A DNA stretch of 64,000 nt, from NCBI GenBank assembly GCA_035625415.1, contig DASPPQ010000068.1, positions 23,590-87,589 of the forward strand, in the 5' to 3' direction. Made by a program: the position numbers and the translations under genes. Within the stretch, counting starts at the first letter, position 1, and every line of letters starts with the position of its first letter. The notes below the pieces were generated by a model, which saw nothing but the letters and a program-made list of their open reading frames with translations, was not told the DNA's origin and made no database searches. Source of the stretch: Thermodesulfobacteriota bacterium. GTDB lineage: Bacteria > Desulfobacterota > BSN033 > UBA1163. Shown piece after piece: positions 16,649 through 26,601 of this stretch.

Positions 16649-16948
16649 TCATCCGGTCTTGTATATCTGCGCAATGCTGGTTAATCGCGCGGCCAGGTCA
16701 TTAAGGTTCTGAGCTGCTTGATCCACCTGCTGCATGCCTTTCTGCGTTTGGGTCGCCCCTTGATTGATACTCTCCATCCAAAGCCTTTCGGCAGTGGAGC
16801 GCGCACTTCGGCGTGAAGCACGACCTTGGTCGACGACCGATAGGCAATGTCGCCTCTCAGGCAAGCCCTCCGGCAGATGTTGTGAAGAGAAAGTTGTAGA
16901 ATCATTTAACGTTGGCTGTTTTTTATCAGACTGCTTAAAATCAAACAA
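16649..16948 (-). CDS. Hypothetical 99-aa protein; C-terminus resembles a methyl-accepting chemotaxis protein signalling-domain fragment
   Basis: ...ESINQGATQTQKGMQQVDQAAQNLNDLAARLTSIAQ resembles the distal MCP signalling-helix region. No upstream MCP body, so it may be a remnant or a spurious ORF. Confidence 0.25.
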   Translation of the reverse strand: MFDFKQSDKKQPTLNDSTTFSSQHLPEGLPERRHCLSVVDQGRASRRSARSTAERLWMESINQGATQTQKGMQQVDQAAQNLNDLAARLTSIAQIYKTG

Positions 16949-17101
16949 AGCATTTTCTTAAAATGATCATTCAGCGAATATTCCTCCTAATAGAAATCTT
17001 CTCTAACCATTTAATTATCCTAAAGAAACGGAATAATTTCTATCGCCCTTTCAACTGGCATAAGGATTGCTCTATCAATAAATTAAAGACATGCGATTTT
17101 G

Positions 17102-17130
17102 TTGACAATAGGATAGAATTATCATTTAAT
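17102..17130 (+). promoter_or_regulatory. Sigma70-like promoter of kdp leader (TTGACA-17nt-TTTAAT)
   Basis: ttgaca at 17102-17107, 17-nt spacer, tttaat at 17125-17130, in an AT-rich region upstream of the leader. Confidence 0.4.
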
Positions 17131-17139
17131 AATAAATAA

Positions 17140-17291
17140 AAAGGCCGAATTGAAATAAGCGGGGGAACCAGTTTTTAGGGGTGAATTCTAGACATCTAGA
17201 GAGGATATCCCTTAATCCTAACCCGTCAGCTAACTCCGCAGGCGACTAAGGGAGAGAATCGAACGCAGGGGATCCTCCTCTGCTTTTTTTT
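17140..17291 (+). promoter_or_regulatory. Candidate c-di-AMP (ydaO/kimA-class) riboswitch leader with intrinsic terminator, upstream of kdp operon
   Basis: Contains GCGGGGGAACC, GGGGTGAAT and ACCCGTCAGCTAACTCCGCAGGCG, recalled from memory as c-di-AMP riboswitch signature blocks. Ends in hairpin gcagggg-atcct-cctctgc plus T8. Confidence 0.5.
17265..17291 (+). terminator. Rho-independent terminator/attenuator hairpin + T-run in kdp leader
   Basis: 7-bp GC-rich stem (one G-U pair), 5-nt loop, followed by tttttttt. About 195 nt upstream of the first kdp-associated ORF. Confidence 0.6.
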
Positions 17292-17335
17292 GGCATGAAT
17301 ATGACGAATGTGGTGGTGAATGTGGTGAAAAGGGG

Positions 17336-17362
17336 GTAGGGATAACGAATGGTTCGTTTCCC
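17336..17362 (+). repeat. REP-like GTAGGG hairpin (imperfect) in kdp leader
   Basis: gtaggg ataacgaa tgg ttcgtttccc. Preceded by a direct repeat gaatgtggtg x2 (17307-17330). Confidence 0.35.
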
Positions 17363-17486
17363 AAAAATACGGGTTTTTTTGCACTTAAATAAGCGATTCT
17401 ACCTATAGACTCGCTCCTTTTTTATGTGTATGTCTTTTCTATACACCGAAAGGAATTGTTACCGAAATTTTAGGAGGAATCCGGAA

Positions 17487-17582
17487 ATGAACCTTGAGTT
17501 TTGGCTGATAGCGACATTTCTATTGGGCCTTGTAGCAATGGGAATAGTGTACTTATTCTTCATCGCTTGCGAGAAAATTTAA
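17487..17582 (+). CDS. 31-aa hydrophobic peptide with strong RBS (KdpF-like or leader peptide)
   Basis: taggagga is 7 nt upstream of the ATG. MNLEFWLIATFLLGLVAMGIVYLFFIACEKI forms a single predicted TM helix. Not in the ORF track because it is under 60 aa. Confidence 0.35.
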   Translation: MNLEFWLIATFLLGLVAMGIVYLFFIACEKI

Positions 17583-17599
17583 GAGAAGAGGTGATGTTA

Positions 17600-17683
17600 A
17601 TGATGATCTATGTGACAGCGGCTGTGGCGGTATTTTTGTTCGTCTACCTGGTTGCGGCCCTTGTGCGACCCGAATGGTTCTGA
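17600..17683 (+). CDS. kdpF: K+-transporting ATPase subunit F
   Basis: MMIYVTAAVAVFLFVYLVAALVRPEWF (27 aa). Resembles E. coli KdpF ...GYLVYALINAEAF. Directly upstream of kdpA. Confidence 0.65.
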   Translation: MMIYVTAAVAVFLFVYLVAALVRPEWF

Positions 17684-17724
17684 GGGCCGACAGCGGATCC
17701 TGAAAGAGAGAAAGGAGTTAAACA

Positions 17725-19554
17725 ATGTTTATCCAAATCTGGCTTCTACCTTTTTGTTTACTCGCAGCAGCGACCCTGATCGCGTTCCCTTTGAGTCGCT
17801 ACATGGGGTGGATCATGGATGGGAAATACCGGCCTTTGCCGGTGCTGGGCTGGTTCGAAAAGCGTTTGGACAGTGGCTCCCAGAACTGGAAGCAGTATAC
17901 CATCGCATTGCTCATTTTCAACACGCTGATGTTCATCTATGGCTATGTGGTTCTGTCACTCCAGCAGTGGATGCCACTCAATCCGGACGGCAAGGGGATG
18001 ATTTTCCCCACGACTATCTTTCAAGCCGTGACCTCCTTCATGACGAACACGGACCTCCAGCACTATTCGGGCGAACAGGTTTTGTCAAACTTCAGCCAGA
18101 TTTTCTTTGCCATCTTTATGCTGTTTGTGTCTGCGGCGGTCGGCCTATGTGCACTGACTGCGATGATCCGACTCTTCCGTGGCGAGTCCAAAATTGGCAA
18201 CTTCTTTGTAGACATGTGGCGGGTGCTGGTTTACATGTTCGTGCCGACCGCCTTGATTCTCGCCTTCATCTTTATGGTCCAGGGTAGTCCGATGACCTTT
18301 AAAAGTTCTTACCAGGTTTCCACACTCGAACCTGCGGCCATGGGAACCACGGACAAGGGCGAGGCAAAGCAGCAGACGATCATAGTGGGGCCGGTGGCAG
18401 CATTCGAGTCTATGAAGATGCTTGGAACCAACGGGGGTGGATTTTACGGCATGAATTCCGCGCACCCATTTGAAAATCCGACGGGGTTCACGAATTTTTT
18501 CAACACTCTGGGCATGATGATCTTTCCGTTTGCCCTCGTGTTGATGTATGGCCGAATGCTCGGCCGGATGCGGCATGCCTACGTCATTTTCTCAGTCATG
18601 TTGGTGTTGATGGCTGGCACGATCGTCTGGGCAGTCTACTACGATACACTGAAACCAAACCCGGGATTAACCGGCCATCCTATTGCACGAACATACGAAA
18701 TTCCCAGTGGAACAGCACCGGGTGGAAAACGAGTAGTAAGTCTGCCAGCACTCCCAGGGCTGCCGGTGGACCAGTACCTGGGTAACCTTGAAGGGAAGGA
18801 AATGCGATTCGGGATTTCGGCAGGGGCCACCTTCGATGCACTGACGACAGATGTGACGTGCGGCGCGGTGAATGCAGAGGAGAACAGCCTCAACCCGATT
18901 GCAGCCTTGTCGCCCATGGTCGGGATGTGGCTCAACTGTATCTACGGCGGCAAGGGGGTAGGGATGATCAATCTGTTGCTCTACTTAATCATCGGGATCT
19001 TCGTGGCTGGGATGATGGTGGGCCGGACTCCCGAGTATCTGGGTAAGAAAATCGGGGGCCGGGAGGTGAAACTGGCAATCATCGCCCTGCTGGTCCACCC
19101 CTTCATGATTCTCTTCCCTACCGGGCTGTTTGCTGCGACAAGCTGGGGGCTCAAGGCAGTCAGCAACCCTGGTGCGGATGGCTTTTCACAAATCCTGTAC
19201 AACTTTTCCTCGGCCTCCGCCAATAATGGCTCGGCATTCGACGGATTATCAGTTGCCTATGGTTTGGTAAGTAATGCAAATCCGGCGCCGACAGCGATCC
19301 CATGGAATATCGCAGCGGGCCTCGTTGTCGTCTTCAGCCGTTATCTGCCGATTGTGGCGCCGATCGCCATGGCAGCATTTCTCGGAGAGAAGAAATCGAG
19401 CCCTTTTGGTCTGGGGACCCTGCGCGATGATACAGTTACCTTCGGTCTCCTCCTGATCGGGACGATTCTTATCGTCGGAGCGCTCCTTTTTTTGCCTGTC
19501 GCAGCACTGGGACCGCTTGCAGAACACTTAGGTCCCATTCCTTTCGGAGGCTGA
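17725..19554 (+). CDS. kdpA: Potassium-transporting ATPase subunit A
   Basis: 609 aa polytopic protein with typical KdpA selectivity-filter-like repeats (NGGGF region). Sits between kdpF and kdpB. Confidence 0.9.
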
Positions 19555-19754
19555 CCAGGAAGCCTTTATGGCTGCTTATTAAGAAACTTCATTGGTGCCC
19601 TAACAATGATGAATTGCGAGATGAATCAAAGGAGTCCGATATGAATAGAGTACCCGATAGTAAAGAAACCGTGGAGACAGTTCCCTTCAGTTCGGAGCAG
19701 CCGCGATCACTGCGCCGTGTGAAGCCAAGAGGGTTGATAGAAAAGGAAACCGGG

Positions 19755-21803
19755 ATGGCGGCCTTGAAACAGGCTTTCGTGATGCTGCGGCCTGATATCC
19801 AATGGAAGAATCCTGTGATGTTTGTGGTCGAGGTGGGCGCCTTTCTGACCCTTCTGTTTATCGTACAGGCGGCATGGGGTAGGCAGACCAGTCAGGTTCC
19901 GATTGCGTATTTTATCGCCCTTGACGCATGGCTTTTTCTGACGGTTTTGTTTGCGAATTTTGCAACAGCCCTTGCCGAGGCTCGTGGTAAAGCCCAGGCC
20001 GATTCACTCAGGCGAGCCCGTCACGACACGGTGGCCTACCGTTTGAATGTTGCCGGAGCCGTCGAGGAAGTTTCCTCGACGGTTTTGAAACTTGGCGATC
20101 GGGTGGTCATACAGGCAGGGCAAACGATTCCCGGGGACGGGGAGATCATTGAAGGGATCGCCTCCGTGGATGAGTCGGCGATTACTGGCGAATCGGCGCC
20201 GGTCATCCGCGCCGCGGGCGGCGACCGATCGGGCGTGACCGGAGGCACCGTGGTCCTTTCGGATCGGATCATTGTTCGGATTACCAGCGGGGCTGGTGAT
20301 TCGTTCCTCGACCGTATGATCGCGCTGGTGGAAGGGGCCATCCGTCAGCGATCTCCGAATGAGATTGCTCTCACATTATTACTGTCGGCCTTTACACTGG
20401 TCTTCTTGATCGTCGTCATTCCGCTTTGGCCCATGGCCTGGAACGCCGAACAGTATATGATGGGATATCTAGGTCTCCAAGAACCCTTGAGGAGTCTCGG
20501 CACGGATGTTCCGACCCTCATTGCGCTCCTGGTCTGCCTCATCCCCACTACGATTGGCGCTTTGCTTGCAGCCATCGGGATTGCAGGCATGGATCGCGCG
20601 CTACAGGCCAACATCATCGCTAAGAGTGGCAAGGCAGTGGAGTTAGCTGGTGACATCGACGTTGTGCTCCTCGACAAGACGGGCACGATCACGATAGGGA
20701 ACCGGAACGCAACAACCTTCTTGCCAATCGGAAAGTATTCGGCTGCCGACGTTGGGCGGCTTGCTGCCATAGCGTCCGCCGCTGACGAGACTCCTGAGGG
20801 AAAGAGCATCGTCAGGTTGTTCGAGAAGCAAAGCCGAACTCCGGTCATCGTGCCGCCGGACGCCCAGTTTGTGCCATTTACAGCCCAAACGCGCATGAGC
20901 GGCATCGATCTTCCTGACGGCCGGCGAATACGAAAAGGAGCGCCAGACGCCATCACGAAATTCGTCGAGAGCAAGCAAGGCAGCGTGCCGGGTGATCTCA
21001 ATGCATTGGTTGATAGCGTCGCATCCAAAGGGGCAACGCCCTTAGTCGTGGCTGATGACGGCCACATTGCGGGTCTGGTCGTTCTTGAGGATATCCTGAA
21101 ACCTCATATGCGGGAGCGCTTCGTGCGGCTGAGGAAGATGGGACTTAGGACCGTCATGATCACCGGGGATAACCCTCTCACGGCTGCGACCATTGCCGCA
21201 CGAGCAGGGGTCGATGACTTTCTCGCCCAGGCCACGCCCGAGACCAAGCTCTCTTATATCCGTAAGGAGCAGGCTGGTGGAAAGCTTGTCGCCATGATGG
21301 GAGACGGCACGAACGACGCACCGGCTCTGGCCCAGGCGGACGTTGCCCTCGCCATGAACGCAGGTACGCAGGCAGCTAAAGAAGCGGCCAACATGGTCGA
21401 TTTGGACAGTGACCCCACCAAGTTGATCGAGGTGGTAGAAGTGGGAAAGCAGCTTTTGATAACGCGAGGCGCCTTGACGACCTTCTCAATAGCCAATGAC
21501 GTGGCCAAATACTTTGCGATTATTCCAGCGCTATTTGCAGGGACTTTGCCATGGCTCAAGGCGGTTGACATCATGCATCTGCATTCACCGACCTCAGCCA
21601 TCCTGTCGGCTATCATCTTTAACGCGCTCATCATCCCTGCGCTCATCCCCGTCGCACTCAAAGGAGTTAAATACCGGCCTCTCGGTGCCGATGCTCTGTT
21701 GCGCAGGAACCTTCTGATCTGGGGACTGGGAGGCGTGATTCTACCGTTTATCGGCATCAAACTGATTGATCTCATCATGGTGGGTTTTCATTTGACCATT
21801 TGA
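19755..21803 (+). CDS. kdpB: Potassium-transporting ATPase subunit B (P-type ATPase)
   Basis: DKTGTIT phosphorylation motif, TGDN and [10 protein letters not shown], about 682 aa from the Met at 19755. The ORF could start earlier, at 19614 or 19641. Confidence 0.9.
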
Positions 21804-21873
21804 TTTGAAGTGAAGCAAGCCTGCCAATCCACCCCGGTCCAGACCGCGAGCGGTGCAGGCAAGGAGGCATAAT

Positions 21874-22893
21874 ATGTTACAAACCCTTTGGAAGAGCATT
21901 TTGTTGCTGTTATTTGCTGTGGTCATCTGTTGCGTTCTTTACCCGCTGGTTTTATGGGTGATCGGACAGGCCGCCTTTTCCTTTCGGGCTAACGGCAGTC
22001 TGCTGAGAGGTCCCGACGGCAAACCGGTGGGATCGCGGCTTATTGCACAACCCTTTACCAAGGACGAATACTTTCAGCCCCGCCCCTCTGCAGCGTCTTA
22101 CGATGCGTCTGCCTCTTCCTCGTCATCCTTGTCCGCCTCCAACTACGCGCTGCGCGACCGGGTCGCCCGGGCACTTGGTCCAATTGTGAAATATCGAAGT
22201 GGCCCCAAAGTCAGACAGCCTGTGGCACTGGACATCGAAAACTGGTTTCAAAAGGATATATTCCAAGGCAAGCCTCACATCGTGGCTCAGTGGGCGGACC
22301 TGCACAACGGCCTGGCGCAAGCGTGGGTCAAGGCGGACCCCAAGAATGGCGCATATGTAGACGGTTGGACAAAGGCTCATCCAGCTATAGTCGCCCAATG
22401 GATCAAGGACAATCCCGGTACGCCTCAACCAAAGGCCGATGATTTGGCCGTCGTGTTCTTTGTGAACTTCTCCACGGAGAACCCCGGTAGATTCCCTTCT
22501 CTTGTCAGCCGCACAGGAGCCGATGGCAAGACCAAAACAACGATTGAACCGGTCAAGGAGGGGTCCGATATTCAATCGATCTTCTTTGACATGTGGCGGC
22601 AGGATCATCCCGAGGCTGACCTTCAGGACGTTCCCGGCGATCTGGTAACCACTTCCGGTTCCGGGCTCGATCCCCATATTACGCTTCAAAACGCCGAGTT
22701 TCAATTGGATCGGATCGCCTCGAAATGGGCCGCCAACTTAAAACGCGATCCGAAGGTAGTCCAAAAAGAGATTGAGGAGATATTGCAGGAAAACGCTTCG
22801 GCCCCATGGTTTGGGCTCGCGGGTGAGAAGCTCGTGAATGTCCTTGAGGTCAATCTCGAACTTCGGAGGCGGTACGGAGCACCATCGCCATAA
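21874..22893 (+). CDS. kdpC: Potassium-transporting ATPase subunit C with a roughly 150-aa internal insertion
   Basis: N-terminus (VLYPLVLWVIGQAAFSFRANGSL) and C-terminus (TTSGSGLDPHITLQNAEF...VNVLEVNLELRR) match KdpC. The middle segment (about residues 95-245) has no counterpart in 190-aa KdpC proteins. Confidence 0.75.
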   Translation: MLQTLWKSILLLLFAVVICCVLYPLVLWVIGQAAFSFRANGSLLRGPDGKPVGSRLIAQPFTKDEYFQPRPSAASYDASASSSSSLSASNYALRDRVARALGPIVKYRSGPKVRQPVALDIENWFQKDIFQGKPHIVAQWADLHNGLAQAWVKADPKNGAYVDGWTKAHPAIVAQWIKDNPGTPQPKADDLAVVFFVNFSTENPGRFPSLVSRTGADGKTKTTIEPVKEGSDIQSIFFDMWRQDHPEADLQDVPGDLVTTSGSGLDPHITLQNAEFQLDRIASKWAANLKRDPKVVQKEIEEILQENASAPWFGLAGEKLVNVLEVNLELRRRYGAPSP

Positions 22894-22959
22894 GTGGGTA
22901 ACGCAAGATCGGGCAGGGATAGCCTTTATAGACATGGAGACATAAGTCCTGTGGGGTTT

Positions 22960-23024
22960 GTCATTCCGGGCTTGACCCGGAATCCAGTTATTTCCCCCCT
23001 GGATTCCTGCTTCGTAGGAATGAC
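22960..23024. repeat. Nested-stem structured element X1 (outer GTCATTCC/GGAATGAC, inner GGAATCCAG/CTGGATTC, two local hairpins)
   Basis: gtcattcc-gggcttgaccc-ggaatccag-ttatttcccccc-ctggattc-ctgcttcgtag-gaatgac. A second copy with compensatory hairpin changes is at 38070-38145. Confidence 0.5.
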
Positions 23025-23087
23025 GTCCTTTGGTGCTATAAATGGCGCTGTGTATAGAACAGGGAAGAATTAATGGGGGAGGGGAGG

Positions 23088-24383
23088 ATGAAAAAGAGAT
23101 TAATAGGTTTGAGTCTGGCGGTGTTGATAATCCTCACATTTGGAATGAATGCACACGCCGAAGAGGCATCTTCATCGACTTCAGACAAAGAGACTCAGGA
23201 GGTAAAGCCGTCGGAGGCACCGGCACCGCCACCCGGACTGTTGATGAGTCTTTTGGGAAAGGCGGGATTGGCCCAACCTTTGGACAAGGCCGGGATTAAC
23301 ATCTACGGCTACATCGAAGGCGGTTACTTTCATGACTTCCGTGTGCCGGGGACTGGCCATGGTCCAACCTTCATCGGGTTTAATAGCTACAAGGACGCAG
23401 TTACCCTTGACAAGATCAGTCTGAATGTGGAGCGCACGGTTGATCCGGCCAAGAAGCAGTTTGACTTCGGGTTCCACGTGGAAGGTATTTATGGGACGGA
23501 TGCCGCGTTCGTCCATTCGAATGGGCTCTTTGACTCACAGACGGGCCGCTATCAAGGAGACCTTCTCCAAGCCTATGTGGACCTGACCCTTCCCGACCTG
23601 CCGGTAAGAATCCGCGCGGGCAAGTGGCTCGCACTGGAGGGCTTTGAGCAATTTAGCGCCAACATCTACGGGGCCTTCGGCGATCCGGCCAGGGCCCTCT
23701 ATTCCTATAGCTACCAGTATCTCTACGCCGAGCCTTTTACTCAGACGGGCATTCTTGTCACCACGGTGCTCAGCCCGCAGTGGTCATTTGACGCCGGCTT
23801 CACGCGGGGCTGGAACCAGTCGGTTAAAGACGCCAATGGTGTCCTGGACTTTTTGGGCCGCATCACGTTTACGCCCAGCGACAAGACCTCCATCGTTCTC
23901 GTTATGACGGAAGGCCCAGAATTTCCGGCGGGTTTCGGACACAATCTGCCTAAAGGCGACCCCCACCACTGGTGGACCGCGTTGGACCTAGTGGTCACCC
24001 AGAAAATTACTGACAAATTGAGCCTGGGCTTGGGTGGTGATTACGTCTATGCTTCGCAGATCCCCGGATTGACAGGCGGTTCGAAGCAGTGGGGAGGTGT
24101 GGCTGGCTATGCGAGCTATGCATTTGGTCCGCATTTCACGTTCAATACCCGACTGGAGTGGTACAGAGATGCGGCCAACGGCTTCTCCGACGGGGCGCCC
24201 GTCAGGGCCAACTATTATGAGGCCACGGTGGGTGTAGCCATTAAGCCTTTCCCGAATGACAAATTCCTCTCGAAGTGGCTGTTCAGACCGGAAGTGCGTT
24301 ACGACCGCGCTGATCACTCGGTCTTCGACGGGGGAGACAGAAATCAGATCACCTTCAGCGTGGATGCCCTCTTCACCTTTTAG
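23088..24383 (+). CDS. Outer-membrane beta-barrel (porin-like) protein with signal peptide
   Basis: MKKRLIGLSLAVLIILTFGMNAHA signal. Alternating amphipathic beta-strand pattern. C-terminal aromatic FTF. Inserted between kdpC and kdpD. Confidence 0.5.
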   Translation: MKKRLIGLSLAVLIILTFGMNAHAEEASSSTSDKETQEVKPSEAPAPPPGLLMSLLGKAGLAQPLDKAGINIYGYIEGGYFHDFRVPGTGHGPTFIGFNSYKDAVTLDKISLNVERTVDPAKKQFDFGFHVEGIYGTDAAFVHSNGLFDSQTGRYQGDLLQAYVDLTLPDLPVRIRAGKWLALEGFEQFSANIYGAFGDPARALYSYSYQYLYAEPFTQTGILVTTVLSPQWSFDAGFTRGWNQSVKDANGVLDFLGRITFTPSDKTSIVLVMTEGPEFPAGFGHNLPKGDPHHWWTALDLVVTQKITDKLSLGLGGDYVYASQIPGLTGGSKQWGGVAGYASYAFGPHFTFNTRLEWYRDAANGFSDGAPVRANYYEATVGVAIKPFPNDKFLSKWLFRPEVRYDRADHSVFDGGDRNQITFSVDALFTF

Positions 24384-24549
24384 GATCGGTCTTAGATCCC
24401 ATATCCGATCTTATCCTTTAGGTTATAACCCCTTTCTGGTATAATACGTGACGTTTCTGCGGGGCTTGTTTACATGCGGCGTGTAGATTAAGCTAAAGAG
24501 CGGCTCCGTTGGAATTGGATGATCCAGAATAAGGAGACGGGCTTAGAGG

Positions 24550-26601
24550 ATGGAAATACAGAAAAACGATAAAGATGCCGCAAGACCAGATCCAGACGCC
24601 CTCTTAAAGGAAGTTCAGCGTGAGGAAGAAAAAAGGGGGAGATTAAAAATATTTCTCGGTTATGCGCCGGGCGTGGGAAAAACTTACGCAATGCTTAACG
24701 AAGCACGCATATTGAAGAAAAGGGGGGAAGATGTTGTGGTCGGCGTTGTGGAGACTCACGGCCGCGTCGAAACGGAGGAATTACTTAAAGGACTGGAGGT
24801 AATTCCACGACGGGGTGCGGAATATCAGGGTATTGTCCTCGAAGAATTGGATATCGATGCCATACTCGCACGAAAGCCTTCGGTTGCTTTACTAGATGAA
24901 CTTGCCCACAGTAATGCCCCGGGCAGCCGCCATCCGAAGCGATACCAGGATATTGAGGAATTACTCGACAACGGCATTGATGTCTACACAACGGTGAACG
25001 TGCAACACTTCGAAAGCCTGAACGATGTCTTGGAAAAGATTACGGGAATTCGGACGCAGGAGACATTGCCCGATACCTTTTTAGATCGCGCTGACGAGGT
25101 TCAGGTGATTGACGTCCCTCTGGAAGAGCTCTTTGAGAGGCTGAAAGAAGGAAAGGTATACATTCCCAAGCAGGCCGAATTGGCGATGCAGAATTTCTTT
25201 CAGCGGGGCAATCTTGTTGCCTTGCGGGAACTCATGCTCACCCATGCAGCCCACAAAATGGATACCGAGCTTCTGAATTATATGAGGGCAAAGGCTATTT
25301 CCGGCCCCTGGCCAGCGGGGGAGAGAGTGATGGTCTGCATCGCCCCGAGTCCTTATGCAAAACAACTGCTACGCAAGGGTTACCAGATTGCGAAAGATGC
25401 GCATGCCGAATGGTATGCCGTGCATGTTTCCACACCTGCCCTGAAGGAGATGTCGGATAAGGACAAGGCTTACATCGCCGAGGCATTGAATCTCGCAGAA
25501 GAATTGGGGGCAAAAATTGCAACCCTTTCCGGAACGGATGTCGCAAATGAAATCGTCCGTTTTGCCCGTGAATATAATATTAACCATATCGTCATCGGAA
25601 AGCCTCTTCACTCGATGTTGCTTGGATTCTGGAAGGGCTCACCAGCCTCCCGCCTGCTGCATACTCCGAGCGAGTTTGAGCTGCATCTGATCACGCCAAC
25701 CGTTGAAAAGAGAGAGATAGAGGTAAAGCCAACCCCCGAACGGCTTACGCTCAATCCCAAAGAGTATGTCCTGACCGCCCTTATGGTCGTTGCTGTGACC
25801 TTATTGAACTTTTTCCTTCAGGGATTCGTCAATCGCATCGCTCTGGTTTACATCTACTTGATTGTGACGATTGCGGCTGCCCTGCTTTTCGGCACCGGGC
25901 CTTCGGTATTTTCCTCGATCATCAGCCTGCTCACTTTCGATTTTTTCTTTACAGAGCCGAAATACAGCTTCACCACGTACCATCCGCATGACGTCATTAA
26001 TATCTTAGTCTTCTTCCTCACCTCAGTCATTGTTGGTCAGCTTGCCAAGATAACCAAAAGGCAGAATCTTCTTTTGCAGCTTCGCCTTAGGCGAGTGACC
26101 CTCATTGAAGAGATAAGCAAGGAGTTCTTGATGCTCCCTCCCGTTGAACAACTTGTGGGGGGAATGGTTCAAAATTCGAGCGAATGGGAAAATGTTTTGA
26201 CCCTGTTTCGTACCACTGTTCTCGATCACATCAGTCATATTGCGATTAAGTACCTGTCGAGGATTATGGATGCACCCTCCTTTGTCCTTTTTATCGGGAG
26301 GGGCAAGAGACTCCAGATCTGGGCTCGAAGCAGACCGGATATTGACCTCACGCCTAATGAGATGGCGGTTGCCGAGTGGACCTATGCACACGGTGAGCCA
26401 GCTGGAGCTGGGACGCAGACGCTGCCGAGCGTTAAGGTCTTCTTTGTCCCTATGAAAACGCTTGAAGAGACCATTGGTGTCATCGGGATTCAGTTCGATT
26501 TTAAGAATCTTCTGCTTGATCAGCGGCGGCTTCTGGGTGTCATCTCCAATCTCTCAGCCCTTGCTGCTTCAAGATGGGTCAAACCATGGTCTGCCAGCTA
26601 A
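24550..26601 (+). CDS. kdpD: KdpD-type osmosensor lacking the histidine-kinase module (KdpD N-terminal domain + USP + TM + GAF only)
   Basis: LKIFLGYAPGVGKTYAML...VVGVVETHGR...LDELAHSNAPGSRHPKRYQDIEELL matches the KdpD N-terminal domain. A USP-like segment, four predicted TM helices and a GAF-like segment follow. No HisKA/HATPase region. No kdpE in the window. Confidence 0.8.
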   Translation: MEIQKNDKDAARPDPDALLKEVQREEEKRGRLKIFLGYAPGVGKTYAMLNEARILKKRGEDVVVGVVETHGRVETEELLKGLEVIPRRGAEYQGIVLEELDIDAILARKPSVALLDELAHSNAPGSRHPKRYQDIEELLDNGIDVYTTVNVQHFESLNDVLEKITGIRTQETLPDTFLDRADEVQVIDVPLEELFERLKEGKVYIPKQAELAMQNFFQRGNLVALRELMLTHAAHKMDTELLNYMRAKAISGPWPAGERVMVCIAPSPYAKQLLRKGYQIAKDAHAEWYAVHVSTPALKEMSDKDKAYIAEALNLAEELGAKIATLSGTDVANEIVRFAREYNINHIVIGKPLHSMLLGFWKGSPASRLLHTPSEFELHLITPTVEKREIEVKPTPERLTLNPKEYVLTALMVVAVTLLNFFLQGFVNRIALVYIYLIVTIAAALLFGTGPSVFSSIISLLTFDFFFTEPKYSFTTYHPHDVINILVFFLTSVIVGQLAKITKRQNLLLQLRLRRVTLIEEISKEFLMLPPVEQLVGGMVQNSSEWENVLTLFRTTVLDHISHIAIKYLSRIMDAPSFVLFIGRGKRLQIWARSRPDIDLTPNEMAVAEWTYAHGEPAGAGTQTLPSVKVFFVPMKTLEETIGVIGIQFDFKNLLLDQRRLLGVISNLSALAASRWVKPWSAS

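Follow-up and report, generated by a model that had tools for sequence, protein, structure and literature searches.

A predicted c-di-AMP riboswitch with an intrinsic terminator in the leader of a kdpFABC operon from an uncultured diderm bacterium

The window analysed here, a 64-kb stretch of contig DASPPQ010000068.1, contains an operon for the K+ pump KdpFABC. Positions 17102-17291, on the forward (+) strand, are best read as the promoter and 5' leader of an X-kdpFABC(-porin-kdpD) operon, X being a 31-codon open reading frame (ORF) ahead of kdpF. In this interpretation, to which we assign a probability of about 0.88, the leader carries a riboswitch for cyclic di-AMP (c-di-AMP) that acts as a transcriptional OFF switch.

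A sequence-only reading had recognised three blocks in the leader as cores of the ydaO/kimA c-di-AMP riboswitch and had named a cmscan search with the Rfam model RF00379 beforehand as the check. This search (Rfam 15, whole window) returns a full-length match to RF00379, the c-di-AMP riboswitch, at 17133-17259 (+), with 98.1 bits against a gathering score of 38. With an E-value of 5e-22, the match is beyond chance. The alignment is not truncated and covers model positions 1-134 of 134, and RF00379 is the sole Rfam family that reaches its gathering threshold in the 64 kb. At the upper-case, highly conserved consensus positions, 50 of 56 nucleotides are identical in the window, which bears out the three blocks. 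Three of the six differing positions keep base pairing, two of them as one compensating pair and one by forming a G-U pair. The highly conserved core nucleotides of the class are present in the GCGGGGGAACC, GGGGUGAAU and ACCCGUCAGCUAAC blocks, and all class-typical helices are found:

17133-17259 (+), c-di-AMP riboswitch aptamer, from the RF00379 match, the conserved positions and covariation
17143-17146/17241-17244 (+), outer helix of the aptamer, from the Rfam helices
17159-17164/17234-17239 (+), long-range helix of the aptamer, from the Rfam helices
17179-17181/17222-17224 (+), central 3-bp helix of the aptamer, enclosing two hairpins, from the Rfam helices
17187-17200 and 17203-17218 (+), the two aptamer hairpins, from the Rfam helices
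17208-17253 (+), aptamer pseudoknot between the loop UCCCUUA (17208-17214) and the 3' tail UAAGGGA (17247-17253), from the inverted repeat and covariation
17159-17169, 17178-17186 and 17221-17244 (+), conserved blocks GCGGGGGAACC, GGGGTGAAT and ACCCGTCAGCTAACTCCGCAGGCG, read from the sequence

The structure was assessed on an alignment of 13 sequences, onto which the Rfam helices and the pseudoknot were written (31 pairs in 7 helices). Standard pairs fill 92% of the pair cells, compared with 40-60% when the partners are slid by 1-3 columns, and the observed covariation score is reached by none of 500 shuffles. Compensatory changes on both sides occur at 12 pairs, distributed over four helices and the pseudoknot. 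The pseudoknot (helix 7) is 83% paired and accounts for three of these changes; it reads CCCUUA/UAAGGG in the window, CUCUCA/UGAGAG in locus L008 and CUUCCA/UGGAAG in loci L050 and L014. Judged by class membership and predicted structure, the window leader carries a genuine c-di-AMP riboswitch. RNAs of this class bind two c-di-AMP molecules selectively, as is predicted for this leader.

The aptamer is flanked by a promoter and a terminator:

17102-17130 (+), sigma-70-like promoter, with the -35 hexamer TTGACA at 17102-17107, a 17-nt spacer and the -10-like hexamer TTTAAT at 17125-17130
17265-17291 (+), intrinsic terminator, the hairpin GCAGGGGA-TCC-TCCTCTGC at 17265-17283 followed by T8 to 17291

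The promoter-like TTGACA-N17-TTTAAT arrangement was pointed out in the earlier reading. Its TTGACA hexamer and 17-nt spacing are invariant in four close relatives (L001, L002, L003 and L005), and TTGACA-N17 followed by a T/A-rich hexamer is also found 5' of more distant aptamers (L008, L025, L047, L051, L052 and L057). From the predicted transcription start at about 17137 to position 17291, the leader is about 155 nt long, close to the 150 nt first estimated. The terminator, placed at the same coordinates in the earlier reading, consists of an 8-bp stem (GCAGGGGA/UCCUCUGC), a UCC loop and a U8 tract, and folds at -12.4 kcal/mol. A hairpin with a U-tract occurs at the same place in five related leaders (L001, L002, L003, L005 and L008), with compensatory changes in the stem: compared with the window, it becomes GUAGGGGA/UCCUCUAC in L001 and L005, GUAGAGGA/UUCUCUAC in L003 and CCAGGGG/CCUCCUGG in L002, and a different stem is present in L008. 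Between the end of the aptamer with its pseudoknot (17253) and the start of the terminator stem (17265) there are 11 nt; therefore, the ligand-bound aptamer and the terminator can coexist. Such an arrangement fits the logic of an OFF switch.

Downstream of the leader, kdpF, kdpA, kdpB and kdpC are adjacent, in KdpFABC operon order and on the same strand as the riboswitch, so that its description as a kdp leader holds. They are preceded by the short ORF X:

17487-17582 (+), ORF X, 31 aa, hydrophobic (MNLEFWLIATFLLGLVAMGIVYLFFIACEKI), with an AGGAGG ribosome-binding site; first gene after the riboswitch
17600-17683 (+), kdpF, with an alternative start at 17594 (PF09604, 24 bits; TIGR02115, 32.2 bits)
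17725-19554 (+), kdpA, 609 aa (PF03814, E-value 2.6e-183)
19614-21803 (+), kdpB, a P-type ATPase with E1-E2 ATPase and HAD domains and TGES, DKTGT and GDGTND motifs
21853-22893 (+), kdpC, 346 aa, with an insertion of about 140 aa (PF02669)

The linkage of aptamer and kdp is repeated in 10 related loci. RF00379 is detected by Rfam in 6 of the 19 nearest loci, and a covariance model built from the Rfam-found aptamers detects 12 aptamers in 80 loci, a lower bound, as only 3 kb 5' of kdpA were fetched per locus. In L004, for example, the fetched DNA could not reveal a riboswitch located 5' of the KdpD-like gene, which starts as early as locus position 209. The complete layout of the window, from promoter through aptamer, terminator and spacer to X, kdpF and kdpA, is found in L001, L002, L003, L005 and L008, the last being a metagenome-assembled genome (MAG) labelled Zixibacteria. 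The aptamer precedes an unrelated gene in L050 and lies on the other strand in L014.

A second arrangement is seen in the Smithella-type loci L025, L047, L051, L052 and L057, where the aptamer (at about 400-550 or at 2062-2201) lies well 5' of X-kdpF-kdpA. It is followed by a weak GAAGA...UCUUC hairpin without a long U-tract. In L051, the sole Smithella-type locus with its ORFs listed, the aptamer and X-kdpF-kdpA are separated by a 565-aa KdpD-N/Usp-like gene. The Smithella-type loci have a different expression platform within the same regulon.

By the proposed mechanism, transcription would start near 17137 from the TTGACA-N17-TTTAAT promoter. In a K+-replete cell the level of c-di-AMP would be high, and the aptamer (17143-17253, including the pseudoknot) would bind c-di-AMP and lock. 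The non-overlapping hairpin at 17265-17283 with its U8 tract would then be free to form, and RNA polymerase would terminate near 17291. When K+ is scarce, c-di-AMP would be low, and the unlocked aptamer would allow read-through into ORF X, kdpF, kdpA, kdpB and kdpC, resulting in more high-affinity K+ uptake. We infer the ligand response of this leader, and its OFF polarity from the characterised Bacillus examples. In B. thuringiensis BMB171, intrinsic termination in front of kdpFABC is promoted when c-di-AMP binds (Wang et al. 2019, PMC6488665), and a limited supply of K+ lowers the c-di-AMP level and switches on the kdp operon (PMC6488665). The statement of the earlier reading that this class controls kdp operons is founded on experiment. 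The B. subtilis ydaO leader also forms a terminator in the bound state (PMC5575661).

Read-through may make use of an alternative pairing that involves one additional element:

17157-17166 (+), candidate antiterminator strand AAGCGGGGGA, predicted to pair with UCCUCUGCUU (17276-17285), the 3' strand of the terminator; specific to the window

The AAGCGGGGGA segment includes the 5' strand of the long-range aptamer helix. Its 10-bp duplex with UCCUCUGCUU has an energy of -15.4 kcal/mol, compared with -10.5 +/- 1.7 for shuffles. For the transcript 17138-17291, the fold with the antiterminator helix (-38.8 kcal/mol) and the fold with aptamer and terminator (-38.6 kcal/mol) are nearly isoenergetic, and the probability of the terminator rises from 0.71 in the free RNA to 0.97 when the aptamer is enforced. 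In these models, the energetics of the window look as expected for a bistable OFF switch. Two other antiterminators found by hand, one pairing the pseudoknot loop with the terminator 5' strand and one pairing the aptamer 3' strand with the terminator 3' strand, were rejected, as neither pairing is conserved.

Several observations weigh against this account. A duplex search of each terminator strand against the aptamer in six leaders found no conserved antiterminator, and the duplex energies lie at the shuffled mean in all of them except the window. The substitutions that preserve the terminator in L001, L003 and L005 weaken the 10-bp alternative pairing of the window, and in thermodynamic ensemble models of all five relatives the probability of the terminator is 0.93-0.99 with or without the aptamer. 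Because the pairing is not kept in the relatives, we present the antiterminator as a window-specific candidate and not as a supported feature. At the promoter, the -10 hexamer TTTAAT lacks the canonical A at position 2. The rule of the promoter scanner demands this A, and the TTGACA/TTTAAT pair is not listed in its output; the promoter call therefore rests on conservation and not on consensus strength. A crude regular-expression search of the window did not find the RHRxA motif of diadenylate cyclases, and c-di-AMP synthesis by the host is assumed from literature on Deltaproteobacteria (PMC5575661). Finally, the 195 nt between the terminator and the first start codon offer room for a second promoter or other control.

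It is conceivable, if unlikely, that kdp is transcribed mainly from a second promoter in this spacer (17292-17486), perhaps under another regulator. In that case, the riboswitch would control kdp expression only in part, or would serve to terminate a short non-coding RNA. Besides the length of the spacer, a block of about 100 nt (17364-17465), shared with L002 and L003 only, is in favour of such a promoter; it contains a TTGCAC...TATAGA arrangement and a hairpin just 5' of the X ribosome-binding site. However, the candidate hexamers are 19-20 nt apart, the promoter scan predicts none in the spacer, and the block is missing from L001, L005 and L008, which retain the riboswitch-terminator-X layout. 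Part of the spacer is demonstrably a gene relic. The spacer also resembles no known RNA family, 17260-17740 giving only sub-threshold chance hits in an Rfam E-value scan for hidden families.

We consider it very improbable that translation, RNA stability or Rho-dependent termination is the main route by which the riboswitch acts, the hairpin and U8 tract then being incidental. While the failure to find a conserved antiterminator in the six leaders would agree with such a mode, as would the Smithella-type loci with no strong U-tract terminator after the aptamer, the hairpin and U-tract are conserved in position, with compensatory changes, across six leaders. At 195 nt from the terminator, the first ribosome-binding site is too distant to be sequestered directly by the aptamer, and termination is the demonstrated mechanism in Bacillus (PMC6488665). 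Smaller still is the chance that the ydaO fold responds to a different ligand or is an inactive relic. Although 6 of the 56 highly conserved positions differ, two of these form the compensating pair and one the G-U pair described above; the score is 60 bits over the gathering threshold, and both sequence and structure are held across diverged relatives. Moreover, association with K+ uptake genes is characteristic of the canonical c-di-AMP regulon. Control of the operon by c-di-AMP-dependent termination near 17291 is the reading that we retain.

The spacer between the terminator and ORF X, whose length varies among the relatives, contains two features:

17300-17346 (+), relic of the 3' end of a lost lipoprotein-like gene, holding GAATGTGGTG twice (17306-17327) and GAAAAGGGGGTAGGGATAA
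17339-17362 (+), local hairpin GGGAUAACGAA-UGG-UUCGUUUCCC, -10.5 kcal/mol

The relic aligns with the 3' ends of intact ORFs in L004 (1946-2491) and L002 (17-508). The intact lipoprotein-like gene encodes about 170 aa with the C-terminus ...EPWIEVYVVK[RK]GWE*, i.e. ...EPWIEVYVVKRGWE*; in the window the reading frame is lost and a TGG codon has become TAG. The direct repeat of GAATGTGGTG reported earlier between the terminator and the first ORF is present at 17306-17315 and 17318-17327 and nowhere else in the window (expected number of copies, 0.1), and can now be explained as a 12-nt tandem duplication inside the gene relic. The riboswitch module lies 3' of the intact lipoprotein-like gene in L002 and 5' of the relic in the window, L001, L003 and L005; therefore, either the module or the gene has been rearranged between lineages. 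The earlier reading also described a repetitive extragenic palindrome (REP)-like hairpin 3' of the terminator. The hairpin itself exists, at 17339-17362, but its identity as a REP element was rejected: it has a single copy in the 64-kb window even at 3 mismatches and is not conserved at the homologous position in L001, L003 and L004.

Two further interpretations of this region were discarded. The GAAAAGGGGGTAGGGATAA segment shares only a 14-mer with kdpA (18952-18965), with an E-value of 0.04-0.6 in the window, and a gene relic is preferred over a kdpA fragment. Direct repeats flanking a mobile riboswitch cassette were rejected, the alignment of 16840-16960 with 17292-17420 being matched by 216 of 500 shuffles. 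Within the block at 17364-17465, a nested hairpin (UCCUUU..GUGUAU..AUACAC..AAAGGA) lies just 5' of the Shine-Dalgarno (SD) site of X, and CUCCU (17413-17417) could alternatively pair with this site. On the other side of the leader, the A+T-rich 230 nt 5' of the promoter (16905-17100) are 78% conserved in L001, L002, L003 and L005, above the conservation of the post-terminator spacer. A structured RNA in this region is unconvincing (RNAalifold, -11 kcal/mol over 311 columns), and its ORFs match no Pfam family.

ORF X is the first cistron under the predicted riboswitch control. A 31-codon homologue lies just 5' of kdpF in 67 of 81 loci (for instance at 2764 in L010, 2790 in L055 and 2773 in L076), immediately preceding it in MAGs labelled as many phyla. 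An SD-like site accompanies 65 of the 67 homologues. The consensus MnLxiWLpaMFlLGxxxMglcyLFxkaCEKI describes a hydrophobic peptide with a single helix, and the entropies at the three codon positions are 0.78, 0.48 and 1.24, with the third position most variable. No Pfam or NCBIfam family scores above threshold for ORF X, and it is at best called a 'hypothetical protein' in the sources; its length of 31 aa limits a single-sequence search of representatives. ORF X may be an unrecognised Kdp subunit. It represents an unannotated but widespread gene for a 31-aa membrane peptide.

The operon may extend beyond kdpC, as no convincing terminator or promoter was found between kdpC and kdpD, and two further genes follow on the same strand:

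23073-24383 (+), gene for a BBP2/OmpL-like outer-membrane porin (PF07642, E-value 5e-56)
24550-26601 (+), kinase-less kdpD, 683 aa, with the KdpD N-terminal domain including Walker A, Usp, DUF4118 and GAF

The porin gene, which may belong to the same operon as kdp, fits a diderm host. Located between kdpC and kdpD, it may provide an outer-membrane entry route for K+ that is co-expressed with the pump. KdpC is 346 aa long compared with about 190 aa normally, and its insertion of about 140 aa parts the two halves of the KdpC profile. The KdpD protein, in which the Walker A motif reads GVGKT, ends after the GAF domain and covers positions 2-522 of the 895-position full-length model. The locus thus lacks both hallmarks of a KdpD/KdpE two-component system: KdpD is without a DHp/CA transmitter, and no response regulator gene (kdpE) is present among the eight ORFs downstream of kdpD.

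The N-terminal domain of KdpD has been described as a serine kinase acting to inhibit KdpB, with c-di-AMP stimulating the short KdpDs (Silberberg et al. 2024, PMC11018627). By analogy with this published work, the kinase-less KdpD probably adds a post-translational brake on KdpB. A crude regular-expression search did not find the c-di-AMP-binding motif SxS...FTAxY in the Usp domain, and because the motif is not recognised there, a second, KdpD-based layer of control is speculative.

Upstream of the leader are genes for EF-G, D-Tyr-tRNA deacylase and a Memo-AMMECR1 fusion. These housekeeping genes are shared with L003, a Thermodesulfobacteriota MAG, at 87% nucleotide identity, which makes membership of this phylum most likely for the host. 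KdpA is found with identical sequence in four metagenome contigs, from the JGI samples 3300018088 and 3300018090 and two ENA assemblies, and its closest genomic relatives (74-94% identity) are MAGs of peat and wetland anaerobes. KdpA is 73-84% identical across MAGs labelled Thermodesulfobacteriota, Nitrospirota, Zixibacteria and Acidobacteriota, and the same range covers MAGs of Verrucomicrobiota, Ignavibacteriales, Anaerolineaceae and Gammaproteobacteria. In 2-kb bins, the kdp region (18001-26000) has 51-57% G+C compared with 45-51% in the rest of the window. The G+C contrast and the cross-phylum KdpA identity suggest that this type of kdp operon has spread horizontally among bacteria of peat and wetlands.

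Work in Bacillus has already established the riboswitch class, its ligand and its control of kdpFABC through termination, and in this respect the window mainly confirms the annotation. Its interest lies in the setting. A survey of the riboswitch-kdp pairing lists 12 species, all Bacillales (PMC6488665), and a 2024 study attributes the arrangement to some Bacillota (PMC11018627). The pairing seen here is outside Bacillota, in uncultured Gram-negative anaerobes, and runs against the Bacillales-only finding (PMC6488665). In the same work, the KdpD of riboswitch-bearing genomes is always truncated, the riboswitch and complete KdpDE being mutually exclusive (PMC6488665). The absence of a kinase part in KdpD and of an adjacent kdpE fits this exclusivity (PMC6488665). 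The riboswitch is here again paired with a kinase-less KdpD, supporting the idea that c-di-AMP control at the RNA level replaces KdpDE. In a more comprehensive picture, which is possible but less likely than not, a set of anaerobic diderms of peat (MAGs labelled Thermodesulfobacteriota and Zixibacteria) would combine a riboswitch-gated kdp operon with a KdpD serine kinase and the 31-aa membrane subunit X. If this were true, the whole Kdp system would be run on c-di-AMP, with a previously undescribed X, conserved across several phyla, ahead of kdpF.

The closest characterised system is that of B. thuringiensis BMB171. Both leaders contain the same Rfam class, followed by an intrinsic terminator and the same target, kdpFABC, and as in that organism the KdpD lacks the histidine-kinase part and has no adjacent kdpE. 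There are also differences. The host, an uncultured diderm, is Thermodesulfobacteriota-like judging from its synteny with L003. Its operon adds the 31-aa ORF 5' of kdpF, the KdpC insertion and the porin gene, and a 195-nt spacer with a gene relic follows the terminator. While KdpD of B. thuringiensis consists of the N-terminal part only, the 683-aa protein here keeps its membrane and GAF domains.

The ydaO (kimA) and ktrAB riboswitches of B. subtilis share the aptamer class and the association with K+ uptake genes, and turn expression OFF by termination (PMC5575661). There, the host is a Firmicute and the transporters are KimA and KtrAB, in contrast to the Kdp P-type ATPase of the window. The E. 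coli-type KdpD/KdpE system regulates the same pump according to K+ status, and the window, too, has a gene for a KdpD homologue 3' of the pump genes; unlike the E. coli type, it lacks the DHp/CA part and an adjacent response regulator, and control is predicted to occur at the RNA level. The short, c-di-AMP-stimulated KdpDs (PMC11018627) resemble the KdpD of the window in the Walker A motif GVGKT and the Usp domain, and KdpB contains the TGES serine. The protein described here differs from them in keeping the membrane and GAF domains and in having no recognisable SxS...FTAxY motif, and its kinase activity is a prediction.

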